DNA of 64,000 nt from an uncultured Bacilli bacterium (GTDB lineage: Bacteria; Bacillota_I; Bacilli_A; RF39; UBA660), in assembly GCA_947589735.1 (NCBI GenBank), contig CANQCR010000007.1:988-64987 (forward strand), in the 5' to 3' direction. Made by a program: the position numbers and the translations under genes. Below the pieces are notes generated by a model. It was given only the letters and a program-made list of their open reading frames with translations, had not been told where the DNA came from and ran no database searches. Positions 9,352 to 38,368 of the stretch are shown here, one piece after another (position 1 is the stretch's first letter; each line of letters starts with the position of its first letter).

Positions 9352-10327
9352 TGTTTTGATTTTTAACAAGCGTATTAAAGTCTACTCGTTTATCAAGAAA
9401 TCCATTTTCGGCAACAATATCTTGCATATGATTAAATCCTTCTTCATTAATTTTAGTAGTATCATACCAAGAATCAATTTCCCGGTAACGACCAATAACG
9501 GTTGTAATATCATCTAGACTTGTATCCGGAAAATAATCAACCAACAATTTAGCTAATTCTTCATCAGAATGTGTATTTGTGTAATCAATCCCTTTTTGAA
9601 TAGCTTGGGTAAACTTTTCAATTACTTGAGGATTTTCTTCAATATAGCTTTTTAAAGCATTAAAAGTTGTATAAGGAACTTCACCACCAATTTCTCCAAC
9701 GGAACTTATAACGTATCCTTTACCATCCTTTTCAAGCGCTAGAGCATTAGGTTCAAACAAAGTGACAAGATCCCCATTTCCGCCGATAAAAGCTCCTGAT
9801 AAACTAGCAAAATCAACACTAGTATCAACTGTTGCATTAATACCTTTTTCTTTTAAGGTATAGTTTAACGTCATAGCTGGCATACCGCCATTGCGTCCTC
9901 CTAAAATGGTTTTATTTTCTAAATAATCAAGATTAAAGTTATCAATTTTTTCTCTGGCAACAAGAAAACTACCATCCCTTTTAGTTAAACCAGCAAAGTT
10001 AATTAGATAGTCTTTTGCGCCCCGGTTATAGATATATAAAGTTTGTTCACTACCACAAAAGCCAATTTGAACATCACCAGACATAACGGCTGAAGCTACT
10101 TTATCAGCACCACTGGTTAAGATAATTTCTACATCTAATCCCGCGTCTTTAAAATAACCATTCGCATCAGCTACATACATTGGTGTATAGAACAAACTGT
10201 GAGTAACTTCGGCAACTTTAACTTTCGTAAGTTCTTCTTTCGTCTCATCTTTTTGGCTATTTTTAATAATAAGGTAAAAAGTTACGACGAAGGCGATACA
10301 AATTAATGTAATAATAAGTTTTTTCAT
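9344..10327 (-). CDS. ABC transporter substrate-binding protein (NMT1/THI5-like, SsuA/ThiY-like)
   Basis: 327 aa with an N-terminal signal anchor and a periplasmic-binding-protein-like sequence. First gene of a three-gene minus-strand operon. Confidence 0.7.
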   Translation of the reverse strand: MKKLIITLICIAFVVTFYLIIKNSQKDETKEELTKVKVAEVTHSLFYTPMYVADANGYFKDAGLDVEIILTSGADKVASAVMSGDVQIGFCGSEQTLYIYNRGAKDYLINFAGLTKRDGSFLVAREKIDNFNLDYLENKTILGGRNGGMPAMTLNYTLKEKGINATVDTSVDFASLSGAFIGGNGDLVTLFEPNALALEKDGKGYVISSVGEIGGEVPYTTFNALKSYIEENPQVIEKFTQAIQKGIDYTNTHSDEELAKLLVDYFPDTSLDDITTVIGRYREIDSWYDTTKINEEGFNHMQDIVAENGFLDKRVDFNTLVKNQNNE

Positions 10328-10587
10328 TTTCTTCTCCTTTCTTTAACTAGTATATTCATTATGCTTTATAATGTGTTATAATGTGAATGATATAATAATA
10401 GCTTTTTTGAAGTGTAAATAATTGACATTTTATTATGAAAATGAAAAACGATGCACTAATAAAGTTAATAATTTAAATATTTAAAAGTAATATTTTAATA
10501 AAATATATAAATTATCTGTCAAAAATAAATAATTGTCAATAGGAAATGTTAACGTGTTGTGATAAGATGTTAGTAATGGAGGATTTT

Positions 10588-11493
10588 ATGAGCATTTTAA
10601 AATGTGAAAAACTATGTAAAAGTTTTGGTAAAAAAGGAGTTTTAAAGAATGTAACCTTTGAAGTAAATGAGGGCGATATTTTAGGCTTTATCGGACCTAA
10701 TGGGGCTGGTAAAACAACAACAATTAAACTTATCTTAGGCCTTCAAAAAATTAGTTCTGGCAGTGTTACTATTAATGGACTTGATATAAAAAAAGATTTT
10801 GTTAAAGCTATTGAACGGGTTGGCGCTATTGTTGAGAATCCTGATCTTTATATGTATCTAACGGGTCGTGAGAATCTTAAGATGATTGCGCGTCTTTATC
10901 ATAATATTGACGCTAAAAGAATTGATGAAGTTATCGCTATTTCCGGATTAGGCAATCGTATTGATGATAATGTAAGCAAGTATTCTTTAGGAATGCGGCA
11001 ACGCCTAGGTATTGCGGCGGCAATCATTCATCGACCTAATCTTTTAATTTTAGATGAGCCAACCAATGGGCTTGACCCTGAGGGGATAAGGGAGTTGCGT
11101 GATTTACTCACAAAATTAGCTCGTGAAGAAAAGATGGCAATTTTAGTTTCAAGTCATAACTTATCCGAACTAGAAAGTTTTTGTAATCAAATATGCATTA
11201 TTAAAAATGGTGTGATTATTGATAAAACATCACTTACTGATTTAAAGAAGGAGGTATCTAATTCCCAATATATTTTAGAACTTGATCATATAGATGGTTT
11301 AAAAGATATCATTGACTATTCATATGAAGAAATATCATCAACGCAAATTTCTATCAATATCGAAAGAGAAAAAATACCGGATTTAATAAAAACACTTATC
11401 GCTAATGATTACCTTCTTTACCAAATTGTTGAAGATAAGGCTAGCTTAGAAGATGCTTTCTTAAGAAAGACGGGAGGTAATATCATTGATTAA
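10588..11493 (+). CDS. ABC-2-type transporter ATP-binding protein
   Basis: Walker A GPNGAGKTT, signature YSLGMRQR, Walker B LLILDEPTNGLD. ATG 10588 follows GGAGGA. The ORF-track start at 10546 lacks an RBS. Confidence 0.9.
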   Translation: MSILKCEKLCKSFGKKGVLKNVTFEVNEGDILGFIGPNGAGKTTTIKLILGLQKISSGSVTINGLDIKKDFVKAIERVGAIVENPDLYMYLTGRENLKMIARLYHNIDAKRIDEVIAISGLGNRIDDNVSKYSLGMRQRLGIAAAIIHRPNLLILDEPTNGLDPEGIRELRDLLTKLAREEKMAILVSSHNLSELESFCNQICIIKNGVIIDKTSLTDLKKEVSNSQYILELDHIDGLKDIIDYSYEEISSTQISINIEREKIPDLIKTLIANDYLLYQIVEDKASLEDAFLRKTGGNIID

Positions 11494-26522: not shown

Positions 26523-26539
26523 GTACGTAATGTGATTAT

Positions 26540-26763
26540 TAAAGACATTGAACAAGAGGAGTAAAATAACTAGTACTTATTAGAGATGAAAAGTCATAGG
26601 CTGAAAGCTTTTCTTAAAGAAGATTATTTGAAGGTAGCTTGGGAGTTTCATATCTAGATAATAGATATGACGTTTACGGCGTTAACGATAAAGATAAACA
26701 GTTGTTTATGAATAAAGGTGGTACCACGGCTTTTCGTCCTTTTAGGATGAAGCCGTGTTTTTT
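26540..26763 (+). promoter_or_regulatory. T-box riboswitch leader (tRNA-sensing transcription attenuator)
   Basis: AGAGGAGTA and AGAGA stem I elements and a GCTGAAAG distal loop. Specifier region GAAGGTAG (26630-26637). T-box core AAAGGTGGTACCACGG (26714-26729). Terminator CACGGCTT-tt-CGTCCT-ttt-AGGATG-AAGCCGTG plus TTTTTT (26725-26763) overlaps the T-box. Confidence 0.85.
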
Positions 26764-30795: not shown

Positions 30796-32787
<1,992 letters not shown>

Positions 32788-32818
32788 TATATTATATGTA
32801 GTATTTGGATGTGATTTA

Positions 32819-35014
32819 ATGCAAGAATGGAATGGTTTTAAAGGAACCAAATGGCAACAAGTAATTGATGTTGAGGATTTTATTTTAAATAATTATCAAG
32901 AATATACCGGTAGTTCGGATTTCTTAAAGGGAATTAGCAAGAAAACGACAAGATTATTGAGCCGTGTCTCTAAAATTCTTGGCAAGGAAGAAATTACGGG
33001 TATTTTGGATGTTGAAACATCAGCTTTAACGAGCATTGATGCTTTTGATCTTGGATATATTGATAAAAAAAATGAAGTTATCAGTGGTATTCAGACTGAT
33101 GATCCTTTAAAACAGGCTGTTAATACTCTTACATTGGATACCTCTCTTAATGTACTTAAAAATAATGGCTATCGTTTTGACCGTGAAGTGTTAGAACATT
33201 ATCGAGATTTTAATGATACGTACGAAGCAAGTCTTAATGAGGCCTACACTAAAGAAATTGCAAAGTTTAAAGAGGTTCACTTATTAGAGGGAATGCCTGA
33301 TACTTATGGTCGTGGTTTTATGATTGGCGATTATCGCCGGTTACCATTATATGGCCTTGATTATTTAATTGCTAAAAAAGAGCATGATTTAAATCGTTTA
33401 AGAAAAGATATCAATTATTCAATGATTCGAGCTCGTGAAGAGGTTATTAAACAGATAAAGTCCTTAAAAAAATTAAAATTGTTAGCATCAAGATATGGCT
33501 TTGATATCTCACGTCCAGCAAGTAATGCGAAAGAAGCTTTTCAATGGCTATATTTTGCTTATCTTGCCGTTAGTAAAGAAACGTGTGGAGCTTCTATGCC
33601 TATTGGCAATAATAGTGCATTTTTAGATATATACATTGCTAGAGATTTAGAATTAGGCATTTTAAATGAAGAAGAAGCCCAAGAATTAGTTGATCAATTT
33701 ATGTTAAAACTACGTTTAATCAGATGTGTTCGTAGTGATGATTTTAAAACAATTTTTATGGGTCAAAATACACTTGTTACTGAGACGATTGGTGGCGTTA
33801 ATAAGGAGCACTCAATTATAACTAAAACAGCTTATCGTTTCTTAAATACCATTGAGACATTAGGTGTTTATCCTACTCCAGCTTTTGCTATTTTATGGTC
33901 TGTTAAGATGCCTAATAATTTTAAAAGATATTTAGCTAAAGTAATGATGAAACATAATTGTTTACGATTTATTAATGCGGATAATCTAGGCAGTAGCAAT
34001 TATGCTACAAATGGTTTAGTAAGTACTTCAAAAATAGGTAAACAAATCGATTATTATGGCGGTAGTTTTAATCTTCCTAAGGCTTTGCTTTATGCCATTA
34101 ATGGGGGATGTGATGAGTTAACAGGCGAACTTGTTATCGATGGTGTAGAAAAATTAGATGGTGATGTTTTAGTTTATTCTAAGGTTGTTCGTAATTTCGC
34201 TATCGTCTTAAAAAAATTAATCACTATTTATGCGGATAATTTGAATATGATTCATTATATGCATGATAAATATGGCTATGAAAGTTCACTTATGGCATTT
34301 AATGATACTGTTGTTGAACGTTATATGACATTTAATATTGCTGGTTTTGCTACCCTTGTGGATTCTTTGTCAGCTATCCGGTTTGCTAAAGTAAAAGTTA
34401 ATCGTGATGAGAATGGTTTAAGCACCGATTTTACCATCACTGGTGATTTTCCACATTATGGAAATAATCTTGATGATGTCGATAAATTGGCTAGTGATAT
34501 TGCTAAACTTATCAATAGGGAATTATCCGGTCATCATTTGTATCGTAATGCTAATATTAAGCTTGGTTTTCAAAGCCTTGGCATGAGTATTAAGTATGGG
34601 TCAAATACCGGTTCAACACCAGATGGCCGTTTTAGGGGTAGTGCATATCCTTTTAACGCTGATCCTGTTGGTAATAAAAATACAAGGGGATTGCTTCGGA
34701 CTTTAAAAAGTGTAATGAAAATACCAAGTAAATTATGTAGTGGCGGTATTGCTACGACAGTCAATATTACCGCTTTAGCGCTTGGTAGTAAAAGAACGGA
34801 ACGTGCTGAAAATCTAATCAGTCTTTTAGATGGCTATTTTAAACAAAACGGTAGTGAACTTGAAATTAATATCATTGATAAAAAGACTATCCAGGATAAT
34901 GATAAGACAAAGGATATAGTGTTATGCGTTGGAGGAATTGTTACGCGTCAGAATGCTTTACCAGATACTTCAAAAGAATATTTACTTGACCTAACATATA
35001 ATACAAAATTATGA
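32819..35014 (+). CDS. Pyruvate formate-lyase (glycyl radical enzyme) homolog lacking the catalytic Cys-Cys; probable pseudoenzyme
   Basis: Collinear with PflB over the full length (YGRGFMIGDYRR, GKQIDYYGGSFNLPKALLYAINGG, HYMHDKYGYE, TGSTPDGR). ACCVSP is replaced by NGLVST, and RVSGY by CVGGI. Confidence 0.8.
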   Translation: MQEWNGFKGTKWQQVIDVEDFILNNYQEYTGSSDFLKGISKKTTRLLSRVSKILGKEEITGILDVETSALTSIDAFDLGYIDKKNEVISGIQTDDPLKQAVNTLTLDTSLNVLKNNGYRFDREVLEHYRDFNDTYEASLNEAYTKEIAKFKEVHLLEGMPDTYGRGFMIGDYRRLPLYGLDYLIAKKEHDLNRLRKDINYSMIRAREEVIKQIKSLKKLKLLASRYGFDISRPASNAKEAFQWLYFAYLAVSKETCGASMPIGNNSAFLDIYIARDLELGILNEEEAQELVDQFMLKLRLIRCVRSDDFKTIFMGQNTLVTETIGGVNKEHSIITKTAYRFLNTIETLGVYPTPAFAILWSVKMPNNFKRYLAKVMMKHNCLRFINADNLGSSNYATNGLVSTSKIGKQIDYYGGSFNLPKALLYAINGGCDELTGELVIDGVEKLDGDVLVYSKVVRNFAIVLKKLITIYADNLNMIHYMHDKYGYESSLMAFNDTVVERYMTFNIAGFATLVDSLSAIRFAKVKVNRDENGLSTDFTITGDFPHYGNNLDDVDKLASDIAKLINRELSGHHLYRNANIKLGFQSLGMSIKYGSNTGSTPDGRFRGSAYPFNADPVGNKNTRGLLRTLKSVMKIPSKLCSGGIATTVNITALALGSKRTERAENLISLLDGYFKQNGSELEINIIDKKTIQDNDKTKDIVLCVGGIVTRQNALPDTSKEYLLDLTYNTKL

Positions 35015-35556
35015 TAGGAAAAATTAGTTCAATTGATCCTATGTCTTTTAATAGTGGCCCAGGTATTAGATTTGTCATCATGGTGGATGAGGTTGAGAAT
35101 ATTACACTAACGCCACAAAATACGATTGATAGAATTAGAAAGTTTCGACCATATTTTGGGCCAGATGATGGAGGATTAACATTTAAAGGTAAAAATATTT
35201 TTCAAGAGATAGATTATATCAATGAGACTTGCCATATTGCTCATAAAGCTGGCATTACGACTTGTCTTATGACGAATGGACATAATTATGAGAAAAATCG
35301 TGTCCAATTTAGAGATATTGACTTTGTTATACTAGAAATTTCTAGTATACCGTTATATAATTATGGTAAGTTAGATGATAAAACATTTGACCGAATGGAA
35401 ATGTTAATTATGGACACATTAGCTAATGGTAAGAAAGTCTTTTTCTATCCTAGTCTTGATGGTGGTATCATTGATAAAGATGATTACGTTAGAAAATTAA
35501 AAAAATATGCCCATAGTTTTAGTTCAGAAATTGAAGTTAAAATAAGTGATACATAA
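35011..35556 (+). CDS. PFL-activating-enzyme homolog lacking the radical-SAM CX3CX2C motif; probable pseudoenzyme
   Basis: GPGIRF, GGLTFKG and GITTCLMTNG align to PflA. The cluster-binding segment (…GCLMRCLYCHN…) is replaced by IMVDEVENITLTPQN, with no Cys. The protein is only 181 aa. Its ATG overlaps the upstream TGA (ATGA). Confidence 0.75.
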   Translation: MIGKISSIDPMSFNSGPGIRFVIMVDEVENITLTPQNTIDRIRKFRPYFGPDDGGLTFKGKNIFQEIDYINETCHIAHKAGITTCLMTNGHNYEKNRVQFRDIDFVILEISSIPLYNYGKLDDKTFDRMEMLIMDTLANGKKVFFYPSLDGGIIDKDDYVRKLKKYAHSFSSEIEVKISDT

Positions 35557-35566
35557 AAAGGAGGAT

Positions 35567-36652
35567 ATGATGAAAAGGAAATATAAAATAATGGCTGCCA
35601 TTTATTTTGTTATTATGGCTCTTGTTCTTTTTCAAAGTGATAATGTTAAAATGTTTGCAACAGCCTTAGATTATATCGCTTGTGGTAGCGCTACAGGCAT
35701 ACCTAAACCTATTCCTCAAGTAATAACAATTGCTTATACACTTCTTATGGTTGGAGCACCGATCGTTTTGGTTGTATCATCAATTATGACTTTAATTAAG
35801 TCAATTGCTGATAGTGATCAAGAAAAAACAGTAAAAGCTAGGAATAATTTGTTTCGAAAAGCAGCTCTAGCGGTTTTAATATTTCTAACAGCGTCAATTG
35901 TACGTTTTGCTCTTGACAAAGTAGCTAGTACAGCCAGTGATAAAAGCACGCTTGCTAAATGTCTTAATTGCTTTGTTGCCTTTAATGGACGCGATTGCAA
36001 AAAATCTAGCAGTGGATCAGAAACAGAACAAGGAACGTATAATGAAACATATAGTAATGTTGCTCAAGCAGGTTTAGGAACAGGAAAACCTAAAGGAACG
36101 AGAACTATTTTGATAGGTGATTCAAGAACAGTTGGAATTTGTGGTATAGACTCATCTGCTGAAACATCTGTACAAAAATGCCGAGATGTTTTGGCAATTA
36201 GAAAAGGCGCAATGGGTTATTATTGGTTTAGAGATACTGCCGTACCAGCCGTTACCAAACAGCTTAATGAGCATCCGCAAACAGTTTATAATATTGTTAT
36301 TTTAATGGGAGCAAATGATTGTGGAAAAATTAAACATCATATGGCGGAAAGTAGAGCAAATTCATACATAGATAAATTAGAAGAATTGGCCGATGGTGAT
36401 TGGAAGAATCATAGTATTGTGTTTGTGTCAGTTGGTCCAATAAAAGTTGAAGCTACTGAATATATGGATAGGACTAGTCTCAACAAATTTAATTCAACAA
36501 TCGAAAAAAGAATAAAAGATAGTAAAAAAAGAAATCTTTTCTGGTGTGATATTCGTGATAAAGTTAATTGGGAATATGGTGACACAGTACACTACTCTAT
36601 ACCAAATGGTGTAAAGGCTCATTATGACGGAGTTATGAACTATTGTTTATAA
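35567..36652 (+). CDS. Paralog A: signal peptide plus two-helix membrane module plus Cys motif, fused to an SGNH/GDSL hydrolase domain
   Basis: AGGAGG at 35559-35564, ATG at 35567 or 35570. The N-module is shared with 36720-37169 and 37262-38341. C-terminal SGNH blocks: LIGDSRT (I), KGAMGY (II), LMGANDCG (III), GDTVHY (V). Confidence 0.8.
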   Translation: MMKRKYKIMAAIYFVIMALVLFQSDNVKMFATALDYIACGSATGIPKPIPQVITIAYTLLMVGAPIVLVVSSIMTLIKSIADSDQEKTVKARNNLFRKAALAVLIFLTASIVRFALDKVASTASDKSTLAKCLNCFVAFNGRDCKKSSSGSETEQGTYNETYSNVAQAGLGTGKPKGTRTILIGDSRTVGICGIDSSAETSVQKCRDVLAIRKGAMGYYWFRDTAVPAVTKQLNEHPQTVYNIVILMGANDCGKIKHHMAESRANSYIDKLEELADGDWKNHSIVFVSVGPIKVEATEYMDRTSLNKFNSTIEKRIKDSKKRNLFWCDIRDKVNWEYGDTVHYSIPNGVKAHYDGVMNYCL

Positions 36653-36676
36653 AAAGGTATATAATTATACCTTTTT
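36653..36676 (+). terminator. Rho-independent terminator after paralog A
   Basis: AAAGGTATA-taat-TATACCTTT followed by TT. A close copy of the module occurs after paralog C. Confidence 0.65.
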
Positions 36677-36677
36677 G

Positions 36678-36686
36678 TGTTATAAT
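36678..36686 (+). promoter_or_regulatory. Extended -10 promoter element TGTTATAAT for paralog B
   Basis: An exact TGnTATAAT match immediately after the terminator. It belongs to a terminator-promoter module also found at 38343-38378. Confidence 0.5.
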
Positions 36687-36719
36687 TGTATTAAGATATA
36701 GAATATGGTTGTGATTTAT

Positions 36720-37169
36720 ATGAAATATAATAGACTAACAAAAGTTGCCTTTATGCTATTTGCATTATTCATTTTATTAGCAGTAAAATCGAATGTTTAT
36801 GCACTTGATTATGTCGCTTGTGGTAGTGCAACAGGAATTCCTAAACCCCTTCCTCAAATGACAACGATTGCGTATACTTTCTTAATTGTTGGAGCTCCAG
36901 TTGTTCTTATCATATCGGCAGTGATAACTTTAATAAAAGCTAATGCTAGTGGAAATCCTGATAATATCTTAAAAGCTAAAGACAAATTGTTTAAGAAATT
37001 TATTCTAACAGGTTTTATTTTCCTAATTGCCGGTGTTGTACAATTTGCCATAACTAGAGTTACTAGTACAAATTCTGATAAAGCAACTGTTGGAAAATGT
37101 ATGAGTTGTTTTTTATATTTTTCTAATTGCAATGATTCAGATTCTGGTAATGATGTTTTTGATGGGTAA
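36720..37169 (+). CDS. Paralog B: N-terminal membrane module only (headless copy)
   Basis: VYALDYVACGSATGIPKPLPQ, two hydrophobic helices separated by KAKDKLFKKF, and CMSCFLYFSNC. It ends shortly after the Cys motif. Confidence 0.75.
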   Translation: MKYNRLTKVAFMLFALFILLAVKSNVYALDYVACGSATGIPKPLPQMTTIAYTFLIVGAPVVLIISAVITLIKANASGNPDNILKAKDKLFKKFILTGFIFLIAGVVQFAITRVTSTNSDKATVGKCMSCFLYFSNCNDSDSGNDVFDG

Positions 37170-37261
37170 TTTACAAAACTTTTTACTTATGATTATTATT
37201 TTTTTCATGATATTTAATTTGTATATTTTACAATTAGTTTTAATTATATAGTGTGGTGAAT

Positions 37262-38341
37262 ATGAGAAAAAAGAAAAATTTAACGTTTGGGGCATTTTTA
37301 GTTATATGTAGTGCTTTATTGATTTGTAATATTGATAACGTTTATGCTATTGACTATGTCGCTTGTGGTAGTGCAACAGGAATTCCAAAGCCTGTTCCAC
37401 AATTAATAACAATTTTATATACCATCCTTATGGTAGGAACACCTATTGTTCTTATCGTGTTTTCAATAATTACTTTGATAAAAGCAGTCTTAAGTGATAA
37501 TCCTGATAATGTTCTTAAAGCTAGAGGGAAATTGTTTAAAAAGTTTATTATTGCGGCAGTTATCTTTTTAACTTCTGGTCTTGTAAGGTTTGTTATAACA
37601 CGTGTAACAAGCAATAGTAAAGATACTAATACCGTTGGAGAATGTTTAAGTTGCTTCTTATATTTTGAAAATTGCGGAAAGTCAAACAGTGGAATTGAAG
37701 TTGAACAGGGAACTTATGGCGAAGCATATAGTAATGTAGCTTATGCAGGTGATGGTAGCGGTAATGCCTTAACACCAGAGCAAGTTGAGGAAGAACTTCG
37801 AAAAATGAAAAAAGCTCCAACTTATAGTGAATTGTTAGAGCTTGCTAAAAAGAATTATAAAATGGATGAATCTGTTTTTAAAATAGTATTTGGTTGGGCT
37901 ATTAATGAAGGTTATGATAGCGCAGTGAATCTTGAAGGTAAAGTTGATCATTATCTAGGATATTTGTGTGATTGTATAGGTATAAACTTATATATGGGTT
38001 TAGATAGTGTAAACTCTGCTTATACACTTGTTGAAGAAATCCGTGGTGGTGGCCCTAGAGACTTATATAATGTAGATCGTATATCAGCAAAGGCCGATGC
38101 TGCAATAAGTAATCCAAGTGATTATGCAGCACAATATAAAGGAATGTATTTGGCATTAAAATATCCTGATGAAAATGTACATAATTGTTACGGTCCAACG
38201 CAAAGCGAACAAAACTTCTATGCCAAAATGGGAGGAAAAGTATATTACCAAGGTAAGGCATATCCATCTGCTCCACATTATCCAATTCAAATATGGACAC
38301 AATGGTACACGGGAATAAAAAACTGGAAAAAAGACAAATAA
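37262..38341 (+). CDS. Paralog C: the same membrane module fused to an unrecognised C-terminal domain of about 190 aa
   Basis: VYAIDYVACGSATGIPKPVPQ, KARGKLFKKF loop, CLSCFLYFENC. The linker EQGTYGEAYSNVAYAG is shared with paralog A. I recognise no motif in the C-terminal domain. Confidence 0.75.
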   Translation: MRKKKNLTFGAFLVICSALLICNIDNVYAIDYVACGSATGIPKPVPQLITILYTILMVGTPIVLIVFSIITLIKAVLSDNPDNVLKARGKLFKKFIIAAVIFLTSGLVRFVITRVTSNSKDTNTVGECLSCFLYFENCGKSNSGIEVEQGTYGEAYSNVAYAGDGSGNALTPEQVEEELRKMKKAPTYSELLELAKKNYKMDESVFKIVFGWAINEGYDSAVNLEGKVDHYLGYLCDCIGINLYMGLDSVNSAYTLVEEIRGGGPRDLYNVDRISAKADAAISNPSDYAAQYKGMYLALKYPDENVHNCYGPTQSEQNFYAKMGGKVYYQGKAYPSAPHYPIQIWTQWYTGIKNWKKDK

Positions 38342-38342
38342 A

Positions 38343-38368
38343 AAAGGTATATTTTATATCTTTTTTTT
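38343..38368 (+). terminator. Terminator after paralog C (weaker copy of the 36653 hairpin)
   Basis: AGGTATA-ttt-TATATCT (one G.U pair) followed by T8. Confidence 0.5.

Follow-up and report, generated by a model that had tools for sequence, protein, structure and literature searches.

The genes A, B and C, three consecutive genes in the 64-kb stretch of DNA analyzed here (the window), are best explained as chromosomal, vertically inherited paralogues within a large T4SS-pilin-like family. On balance, we favor the interpretation that they are domesticated hairpins of this kind, which would display envelope-active hydrolases on the cell surface. Profile and BLASTP comparisons showed that their common module is homologous to small tandem-array proteins heading Gram-positive T4SS clusters of the Mycoplasma-ICE type, and in the lineage of the window this module occupies housekeeping loci and is C-terminally fused to interchangeable extracytoplasmic hydrolase domains. 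It appears to have been recruited to the chromosome, where it anchors at least eight kinds of such hydrolase. The finding is of interest since pilin-like proteins are commonly described as missing from Gram-positive conjugation systems; recent reviews describe the Gram-positive T4SS as devoid of VirB2-like pilins, with the Patescibacteria as a striking exception (PMC12102498; PMC12857230). Our analyses indicated that tandem genes for pilin-like hairpins, placed at the head of T4SS clusters of the Mycoplasma-ICE type, are widespread among gut Firmicutes, which provides a testable handle on the role of VirB2-like proteins in monoderms.

The ORF list placed the three genes on the + strand, where the initial annotation had put them, and alignment bore out its proposal of a shared N-terminal module, with a signal peptide and a two-helix hairpin in all three proteins and differing C-terminal parts. 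Gene A (35567..36652, 361 aa; gene callers' start at 35570; module HMM E=1.8e-52) encodes a signal peptide (aa 1-33, 35567-35665), the hairpin module (aa 34-150, 35666-36016), a conserved linker EQGTYNETYSNVAQAG (about 36017-36076) and an SGNH hydrolase head (aa 173-361, 36083-36649). Gene B (36705..37169, 154 aa) is headless and comprises only a signal peptide (aa 1-33, 36705-36803) and the module (aa 34-154, 36804-37166), its stop lying at the point where the linker starts in A and C. Gene C (37253..38341) is an ORF of 362 aa, or 359 aa from the gene callers' start at 37262, with a signal peptide up to ..NVYA (37253-37348), the module (37349-37693), the linker EQGTYGEAYSNVAYAG (about 37694-37753) and a head without recognised fold or function (37754-38338). 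The signal-peptide ends FATA|LDY, VYA|LDY and VYA|IDY, the invariant string DY[IV]ACGSATGIPKPxPQ, the two hydrophobic helices separated by a K/R-rich loop and the linker pattern EQGTY.E.YSNVA.AG common to A and C were all present as first described, and so was the division into an SGNH head in A, a B protein that ends after the module and a C head of no recognised family. The cysteine motif needed correction: CxxCF is followed by a further Cys as claimed, but at a spacing of x7 in A and x5 in B and C rather than x5-6.

A 32-nt run encoding YVACGSATGIP is identical on the + strand of B (36810..36841) and C (37355..37386). The identity is real, yet its earlier reading as a sign of recent duplication was rejected, since DNA identity between the modules reaches no more than 62-70% and each of the three genes has its positional orthologue in a related chromosomal locus (L001). 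Judging from these orthologues, the three-gene array predates the split from the related lineage. In addition, AT-rich hairpins followed by a U-run lie on the + strand directly after gene A (36650..36677; -11.6 kcal/mol, z -4.3) and directly after gene C (38340..38368; -7.3 kcal/mol, z -3.9). The former resembles an intrinsic terminator and the latter also looks terminator-like, and no comparable hairpin follows gene B. A consensus scan for promoters and terminators did not rise above shuffled controls; the hairpin after gene A was not called by it because its stem is low in G+C.

Restriction of the module to one strain, which the initial annotation would have counted against its novelty, was not observed. 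Specifically, an HMM built from the window clade matched 2,157 cluster representatives at E<=1e-3, of which 604 remained at E<=1e-10, in a library of 1.84 billion proteins, and these representatives fall into two architectures. An exhaustive HMM search was required for this result, as a word-indexed search with B returned only itself and one relative. Among 260 aligned members, the four cysteines are conserved at 96-99%, a proline in helix 1 at 100% and a lysine of the loop at 99%. These searches define a family with over 2,000 clusters, which largely escapes current Pfam and NCBIfam thresholds. Searches of plasmids and phages with tblastn and a scan of IMG/VR gave no match, so that there is no evidence in these collections for a phage- or plasmid-borne family.

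The guess that the module has the topology of VirB2/TrbC-type pilins, a signal peptide and a two-helix hairpin with a basic loop, agreed with the sequence, the charge count and an AF2 model, and is now backed by homology to T4SS-linked small two-helix proteins. The loop carries charges of +6/-2 (net +4), the N tail +1/-1 and the segment after helix 2 +3/-5; together with the placement of the cysteines, this is in line with the claim that the heads and the Cys motif face outward. The AF2 model of the gene B module (pLDDT 82) consists of a beta-hairpin, two long helices (48-82 and 85-119), a CxxC helix and a strand. In the structural check proposed in the initial annotation, Foldseek of the model against the PDB retrieved only generic helical hairpins (E>0.3), small hairpins being poor discriminators. 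The T4SS-linked homologues start right at LDYVxCG, which fits the predicted cleavage site.

Profile searches located the family at the border of named ones. The TrbC/VirB2 profile PF04956, suggested at the outset, matched neither the relatives nor A, B and C in any Pfam scan, for the latter three even at E<=1. Against PF18895 (T4SS_pilin; gathering score 26.6 bits), B scored 10.5 bits (E=0.67) and A and C gave no match at E<=1, so none of them reached the gathering score. Other members came closer: 34/40 short family members matched at E<=0.01, a relative (P0055) scored 25.9 bits, and a 343-aa chromosomal member (L012) exceeded the gathering score with 28.2 bits; only 2/10 of the T4SS-linked small members matched at E<=0.01. 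These Pfam E-values are inflated for the hydrophobic segment, since the hairpins also match 7TM receptor families spuriously (best E 1.3e-7). For NF045849 (cut-off 40 bits), B scored 11.7 bits (E=0.16), and 7/40 module proteins matched at E<=0.01. Kinship with PF18895 at the family level is likely, and by their scores A, B and C fall short of formal membership. The earlier remark that the module was not recognised as a named family therefore holds for A, B and C, which lie under both cut-offs, but not wholly for the family, which borders PF18895 and NF045849.

Comparison with T4SS clusters was independent of Pfam. The window-clade HMM, built from the A2 alignment only, matched T4SS-linked small two-helix proteins at E 1e-10 to 1e-15 (Z=1.8e9), and composition-corrected BLASTP of the module against them gave 1e-12 to 6e-16, the similarity taking in the non-membrane motifs LDYVxCG and CxxCF. 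These small relatives (100-180 aa) are encoded in groups of 2-4 tandem genes immediately ahead of the T4SS genes, and the T4SS-linked arrays contain small members together with larger ones that bear extra domains. The order of the clusters is pilin-like array, VirB6-like, VirB3-like, TraC-like, VirB4, CHAP/SpoIID hydrolase and T4CP. At 20/33 evaluable metagenome loci, a VirB6-like gene lay downstream of the array at a distance of at most 2.5 kb, and VirB3, VirB4, the hydrolase and T4CP came after it; such contexts were seen, for example, in loci L018 and L014. The VirB4 of the cluster matched the Mbov_0397 family (NF045975; E 3.5e-106, 356 bits against a cut-off of 590), and the VirB6-like protein matched the Mbov_0396/MMCAP2_0566 families (NF045889/NF045848).

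The genomic setting of A, B and C is different. No T4SS gene was found within the 64-kb window, as the initial annotation had remarked for its neighborhood, nor in six related chromosomal loci; the adjacency to VirB4/VirB6 associated with PF18895 was seen instead in distant relatives, at 20/33 evaluable loci, and the NF045849 gene order (pilin-like, Mbov_0396-like, Mbov_0397-like VirB4) is absent from the window and present in L018 and similar loci. The array sits in a housekeeping slot, ligA-PFL-PflA-like-[array]-PFOR, with three array genes in the window, three in L001 and one in L004. This slot is kept across genomes that share only 62-80% identity in PFL, and its persistence speaks for a function that does not depend on a mobile element. 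Relative to a conspecific MAG, DNA identity drops from 97-99% to 74-80% from the PFL gene onward. The host encodes PBP, Spo0A, Gpr and PASTA kinase, and on this gene content it is a producer of peptidoglycan and spores. It is an uncultured gut bacterium, a spore-forming low-GC Firmicute recorded as 'Bacilli' in MAG records.

The heads support the idea of a constant anchor with swappable heads. The head of A contains the catalytic blocks ILIGDSRTVG, LMGANDCG and GDTVHY, with the Ser of GDS, the Gly, the Asn and DxxH in place; G-D-S and H are invariant in nine homologues. It matched Pfam Lipase_GDSL_2 at E=0.0086 as a single sequence, under the gathering score, and a profile of the nine homologues matched PDB 3p94 at E=1.8e-4. 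From these motifs and matches, the head of A is an SGNH hydrolase with intact catalytic residues and predicted activity. The head of C gave nothing significant in Pfam, NCBIfam or PHROGs, no PDB sequence match with single-sequence or profile queries, no Foldseek match of its AF2 model in PDB or BFVD, and no relatives in a word-indexed search; only four homologues are known, each fused to the same module. An assignment to SleB/CwlJ- or lysozyme-like enzymes, guessed from ExxFxxVxGxxxxEGY...IN, was dropped as unsupported. At least two head domains without recognised fold are flagged here, namely the C head and the L003-type head. The survey of heads proposed at the outset revealed many unrelated hydrolases on the same module in relatives, including SGNH, M23 (5e-35), Beta-lactamase2 (1.6e-40), GDPD, M15_4, C39-like and alpha/beta hydrolases/esterases. 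The positional orthologue of headless gene B in L001 bears a GDPD head, and in one relative (L057) the module is fused to a PT-HINT (Pretoxin-HINT) domain (E 4e-22).

According to the domesticated-anchor interpretation that we favor, the proteins would be exported via Sec and cut by signal peptidase at ..[VT][YA]A|[LI]DY, leaving an N-out/C-out hairpin with its basic loop (net +4) on the cytoplasmic side. On the outer face, the N-terminal beta-hairpin (YVACGSATGIP) would meet the CxxCF..C segment after helix 2, and the four near-invariant cysteines probably join the two. The C-terminal head, an SGNH esterase in A and an unassigned domain in C, would be kept at the membrane-wall interface and may act on envelope polymers, e.g., O-acetylated peptidoglycan. 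For headless B, co-assembly with A and C by way of the strongly conserved hairpin is probable. So high a degree of conservation suggests that the hairpin is more than a passive anchor, and its role may extend beyond display.

This conservation far beyond the needs of an anchor also favors a different reading, which we consider unlikely, that A, B and C are true pilin subunits extracted and polymerised by a T4SS elsewhere in the genome (e.g., in an ICE). B would then be the major subunit, and A and C minor ones placing enzymes outside a VirB2-type fibre, perhaps for breaching the recipient or donor wall. Consistent with it, the homologous arrays occupy exactly the pilin-gene position in T4SS clusters and likewise combine small and extra-domain members, and many heads are of peptidoglycan hydrolase types, comparable to VirB1-like T4SS components. 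Both termini point outward in VirB2/TraA pili, so C-terminal cargo is sterically possible. However, T4SS genes are missing from the window and the six related loci, the slot between housekeeping genes is conserved despite the divergence of PFL, no pilus is known for T4SS of the Mycoplasma-ICE type, and globular heads of 200 aa on all subunits would impede helical packing.

A related and rather unlikely possibility is that, in this lineage of monoderm Firmicutes, the T4SS pilin fold came to serve as an all-purpose scaffold for surface display, a kind of 'enzyme pilus'. Modular and strain-variable, it would arise by oligomerisation or polymerisation of the hairpins into a fibre or raft rooted in the membrane, whether or not a T4SS takes part. 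Structural subunits would be provided by headless B, and A and C would be the subunits that bear enzymes. If true, this would be a first both for VirB2-type polymers in classical Gram-positive bacteria and for such polymers with catalytic cargo.

The likeness to polymorphic surface effectors noted in the initial annotation raises a further reading, that the module is a trafficking or anchoring domain and the heads are toxins (cell-wall hydrolases, esterases) delivered to neighboring bacteria. A constant N-terminal module with many unrelated hydrolase heads behind a conserved linker junction, the relative fused to Pretoxin-HINT and the strain-variable locus all fit such antagonistic effectors, and periplasm-acting effectors have a similar range of head types (peptidoglycan hydrolases, esterases). 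Against this, there is no immunity-like small ORF between or after A, B and C: the gaps between A, B, C and PFOR measure only 52, 83 and 52 nt and hold no + strand ORF of at least 50 aa, and the window contains no immunity-like gene. Furthermore, the heads are tethered to the producer's own membrane and A and C have no release mechanism, B is headless, Beta-lactamase2 and GDPD heads are atypical for toxins, and the divergent segment, which takes in PFL and the PflA-like gene as well, may be no more than a recombination tract. Support for the analogy is thin, and we regard an effector role as improbable.

It is very improbable, and largely refuted by these comparisons, that the module is an unrelated, lineage-specific anchor whose Pfam/NCBIfam similarity is an artefact of transmembrane composition, because, although the window proteins lie under the PF18895 threshold, spurious 7TM receptor matches of similar E-value accompany the PF18895 matches and Foldseek was uninformative for the module, the HMM and BLASTP homology to T4SS-linked proteins is independent of Pfam and covers non-membrane motifs, and the conserved gene order with VirB6/VirB3/VirB4 recurs at 20 independent loci.

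The domesticated hairpins can be compared with several known systems. First, like PF18895 proteins and the VirB2-like arrays of Patescibacteria, the module relatives are small, with two hydrophobic helices and a basic loop, and occur as tandem divergent paralogues adjoining monoderm-type T4SS (PMC12102498; PMC12857230). Unlike them, the host here is a spore-forming low-GC Firmicute; the family also has four conserved extracytoplasmic cysteines, and the window copies lie outside T4SS loci and carry C-terminal enzyme domains, neither of which we found described for PF18895 in the literature. Second, the clusters of the module relatives run pilin-like protein, multi-pass membrane protein and VirB4, as do Mbov_0395/Mbov_0396/Mbov_0397 of the Mycoplasma ICE, whereas all scores are under the NCBIfam cut-offs, indicating a related rather than the same ICE type, and the window proteins are not ICE-borne, two of the three being fused to extra heads. 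Third, the module shares with TrbC/VirB2/TraA the signal peptide, the hairpin with basic loop and the predicted N-out/C-out topology, and its relatives stand at the start of a mating-pair-formation operon. It differs from them in having no PF04956 match and in its beta-hairpin, cysteine-rich ectodomain, enzyme fusions and monoderm host; Foldseek against the PDB gave generic hairpins, which discriminate poorly, and no match to solved pilins (TraA, VirB2, TrwL).

Polymorphic toxin systems, reportedly described by Zhang, Aravind and colleagues in 2012, resemble the array in their constant N-terminal module, with C-terminal catalytic domains exchanged at a conserved junction, in the strain-variable locus and in the PT-HINT fusion of one relative. 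In contrast, A, B and C have no immunity genes downstream and, in the Pfam scan, no pre-toxin processing or release domain, one member is headless, and the heads are mostly housekeeping-type envelope hydrolases. Finally, the VirB1-like hydrolases of Gram-positive T4SS, PrgK, TraG (pIP501) and CwlT, are encoded in T4SS operons and have a simple N-terminal transmembrane helix. They share with the window proteins a putative peptidoglycan-active enzyme tethered to the membrane's outer face and an evolutionary tie to conjugation machinery, whereas the anchor here is a pilin-like hairpin and the genes are chromosomal.

Three consecutive genes on the + strand, A (35546/35567-36652), B (36705-37169) and C (37253-38341), were delimited by ORF listing; in public assemblies, gene callers place the start of A at 35570, which gives 360 aa, and that of C at 37262, which gives 359 aa. 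Alignment of the three proteins bore out the shared features in the initial annotation: signal-peptide-like N-termini before [LI]DY, ending in FATA in A and VYA in B and C; an invariant DY[IV]ACGSATGIPKPxPQ string; a pair of hydrophobic helices with a K/R-rich loop between them; and an EQGTY.E.YSNVA.AG linker common to A and C, at the exact start point of which B ends. CxxCF followed by a further Cys is also present in all three, but the spacing, first given as x5-6, is x5-7 (7 residues in A, 5 in B and C). The 32-nt identical run exists as well, at 36810 and 37355; however, the recent duplication read from it was rejected, since the modules show just 62-70% DNA identity and the run encodes the most constrained peptide, YVACGSATGIP. 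Terminator-like hairpins were found 3' of A and of C, and none after B.

The AF2 model of B, based on a 40-sequence alignment (mean pLDDT 82), comprises a signal-peptide helix (residues 3-26), a beta-hairpin covering YVACGSATGIP (36-46), two long helices (48-82 and 85-119), a third helix bearing the CxxC (123-138) and a short strand (143-145). In B, charges are +6/-2 for the inter-helix loop, +1/-1 for the mature N-terminal tail and +3/-5 for the segment behind helix 2, and thus by the positive-inside rule the loop would be cytoplasmic and both termini outside, in agreement with the outward placement of the Cys motif and heads proposed at the outset. With the termini facing out, all four conserved Cys would lie on the oxidising side and could tie the N-terminal hairpin to the segment after helix 2. 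Foldseek matched the B model in the PDB to generic helical hairpins alone (E>0.3), and comparison of this predicted structure speaks neither for nor against kinship with solved pilins.

An exhaustive HMM search with a profile of the three window modules and one relative (A2) recovered, counted as representatives of 50%-identity clusters, 2,157 sequences at E<=1e-3, 604 at E<=1e-10 and 46 at E<=1e-30; a word-indexed search gave 2 matches and nearly overlooked the family. No source checked gives its members a protein name. Many members consist of the module alone, and two architectures occur: N-type, as in the window genes, with signal peptide, module and C-terminal head (140-480 aa), and C-type, with signal peptide, a variable, often Cys-rich N-terminal domain, module and a short Cys/Tyr-rich tail. 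In the HMM alignment of 260 members, four Cys are kept in 96-99% (the first, within xCG, ahead of helix 1 and the other three, as C..C and C, behind helix 2), one Pro and one Leu of helix 1 are conserved at 100% and the loop Lys in 99%. Such conservation far exceeds the need of a passive membrane anchor.

The identity of the module is decided by gene neighbourhoods. In locus L018, the 124-aa relative P0255 and a 126-aa paralogue form a tandem pair that opens a gene cluster, followed by a 664-aa multi-pass protein, a 106-aa VirB3-like protein, a TraC-like protein and a 594-aa VirB4, and farther along by a 992-aa SpoIID/CHAP hydrolase and a VirD4-type coupling protein. The latter is apparently split at 9958-11098 into a 218-aa ORF and the next ORF, which could be a frameshift or an assembly error; in L043 and L075 it is a single ORF of ~740 aa. 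A similar type IV secretion system (T4SS) cluster accompanies P0253, with four further module genes. A metagenome scan yielded 72 loci with module genes, mostly of 100-180 aa and often in tandem (two copies in 23 loci, three in 9 and four in 4), and among the 33 evaluable loci, those with at least 1.5 kb of downstream sequence, 20 had a VirB6-like gene within 2.5 kb downstream, succeeded by VirB3, TraC-like, VirB4, hydrolase and coupling-protein genes in the L018 series. In L014 (1-10000) and L015, a T2SSE/VirB11-type ATPase (PF00437), a DUF5411 protein and about ten ORFs without Pfam match lie upstream of the pilin-like array, and an M23 peptidase replaces the CHAP hydrolase at the cluster end.

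The A2 HMM, built from the window clade only, matched the T4SS-linked small proteins at E 3e-10 to 2e-15 (Z=1.8e9), and B matched them at 5e-12 to 6e-16 in composition-corrected BLASTP, with alignments taking in the non-membrane motifs LDYVxCG and CxxCF. These matches show, independently of Pfam, that the window module is homologous to the T4SS-linked proteins, which begin directly at LDYVxCG and thereby support the predicted signal-peptidase site of A, B and C. The label "pilin-like" rests mainly on this homology and on synteny, not on Pfam. T4SS_pilin (PF18895) was matched at E<=0.01 by 34 of 40 short family members (best 2e-6), 10 of 44 N-type proteins and 2 of 10 T4SS-linked small proteins; against its gathering score of 26.6, gene B reached 10.5 bits and a 343-aa chromosomal protein (L012:1789-2817) 28.2 bits, and A and C gave no match. 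Pfam E-values for the hairpin segment are inflated, because module hairpins also produced spurious matches to 7TM receptor models (best E 1.3e-7). Canonical TrbC/VirB2 (PF04956) was not matched in any scan. The 343-aa protein is one of two in L012 (1789-4598), equal in length and HMM score with the module C-terminal, that flank a TMEM164-family (PF14808) membrane-protein gene beside rnr; similar module genes of ~400 aa adjoin rnr in L005, L006, L010 and L020.

The head of A is a predicted SGNH hydrolase: the GDS, GxND and DxxH blocks can be recognised, all homologues keep GDS and H, and a nine-sequence profile matched GDSL-like lipase 3p94 (E 1.8e-4) and, more weakly, the peptidoglycan O-acetyltransferase PatB. 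The C head has only four homologues, every one fused to the same module, and no match in Pfam, NCBIfam, PHROGs or PDB sequences; its AF2 model (mean pLDDT 73.5; parts of the head 82-96) had no Foldseek match in PDB or BFVD. N-type heads across the family include SGNH/GDSL (at least 14 proteins), Peptidase_M23 (up to 5e-35), Beta-lactamase2 (1.6e-40), Peptidase_C39_2/C10-like, Peptidase_M15_4, GDPD (over gathering score), alpha/beta-hydrolase esterases, DUF4886 and at least one more unrecognised domain. Most of these belong to enzyme classes whose substrates are peptidoglycan, teichoic acids or lipids. In the closest relatives, a linker motif, [GE][TS][YH]xxx[YH]SN[VILM], is retained ahead of SGNH, M23, C39-like and C-type heads, which marks the linker as a head-exchange junction. 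L003 (9917-11101) and P0011, P0015, P0021, P0027 and P0048 join the module to the further unrecognised head, which shows the motif ..M[YF]A[AV]E[TS]GG.. and has no Pfam match at E<=0.01. A 290-aa chromosomal relative (L057 2047-2919) joins a module without signal peptide to Pretoxin-HINT (E 4e-22); it stops 6 residues past the HINT "HN" motif, which leaves no space for a toxin domain after it, and two small ORFs lie downstream.

The window host is a low-GC (~31%), spore-forming Firmicute with peptidoglycan (PBP, Spo0A, Gpr, SpoVIF and PASTA kinase genes were seen), and related MAGs labelled "uncultured Bacilli bacterium" come from rabbit and mouse gut. Upstream, the array is bounded by ligA, a PFL-like and a PflA-like gene and downstream by PFOR, and T4SS genes are absent from the whole 64-kb window, as the initial annotation had held for the array's surroundings. 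The PflA-like gene (35011-35556, +) encodes a 181-aa homologue of pyruvate formate-lyase activating enzyme (PDB 3C8F, E 6.5e-5) without Pfam match, in which query residues 24-33 replace chain residues 25-50, the stretch bearing the radical-SAM CxxxCxxC in E. coli PflA; it may be an inactive or repurposed activase. Elsewhere, the window opens with a truncated 23S rRNA gene (its 3' 825 nt) and a 5S rRNA gene (1-990), and a T-box leader (26539-26744, 106 bits) precedes an operon of an HD-domain gene and valS.

The slot that the array occupies in the window contains, in L001, a conspecific MAG contig, three genes with SGNH, GDPD and C-type heads and, in L004, a single gene with an SGNH head. DNA matches link A to the first L001 gene, B to the second and C to the third, which indicates that the three-gene array is old; either B has lost a head or its partner in L001 has acquired one. 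Upstream, to ~32.7 kb, L001 and the window share 97-99% DNA identity (ligA protein 99.4%); the figure is ~80% from the start of the PFL-like gene (~32.7 kb) and ~74% over the PflA-like gene and array. This comparison, of L001 1-10321 with window 32650-35977, reaches downstream to the end of the contig after the array. The PFL-to-array segment is therefore strain-variable, and the abrupt drop near 32.7 kb marks a sharp recombination or replacement boundary. Other chromosomal module subfamilies keep conserved positions in related genomes, beside rnr and between lemA/gerQ and U32 peptidases.

With modest confidence, we favour reading A, B and C as domesticated T4SS-pilin-like hairpins: after Sec export and cleavage they would insert N-out/C-out, with disulfide staples on the outer face, and keep hydrolase heads at the membrane-wall interface, headless B probably co-assembling with A and C. 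As an alternative, a T4SS encoded elsewhere might assemble the three proteins as subunits of a true pilus, which would explain the extreme hairpin conservation and the arrays mixing small and large members, yet this seems unlikely given the stable housekeeping location and the lack of T4SS genes nearby. It is quite improbable that the three are polymorphic antagonistic effectors, for which there are no immunity genes and no release domain and with which headless B agrees poorly, even if the swapping of heads, the variation between strains and a PT-HINT fusion in one relative speak for it. An unrelated anchor with artefactual similarity is highly improbable, being largely excluded by the HMM/BLASTP homology and the VirB6/VirB3/VirB4 gene order.

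The literature searched contained no description of derivatives of this kind, chromosomal and enzyme-fused in housekeeping loci, or of the conserved four-cysteine ectodomain, and PF18895 is reported solely for VirB2-like pilin arrays of Patescibacteria (PMC12102498; PMC12857230). The nearest NCBIfam families of the L018 proteins are those of Mycoplasma ICEs, Mbov_0397 for VirB4 (E 3.5e-106) and Mbov_0396/MMCAP2_0566 for the multi-pass protein. In Mycoplasma ICEs, the gene directly upstream is the NCBI "Mbov_0395 family pilin-like conjugal transfer protein" (NF045849), which 7 of 40 members match, all under its cut-off. Pilin-like proteins are known from monoderm and Mycoplasma-ICE-type T4SS, and the T4SS-linked arrays add to them a new branch that has gone largely unannotated.
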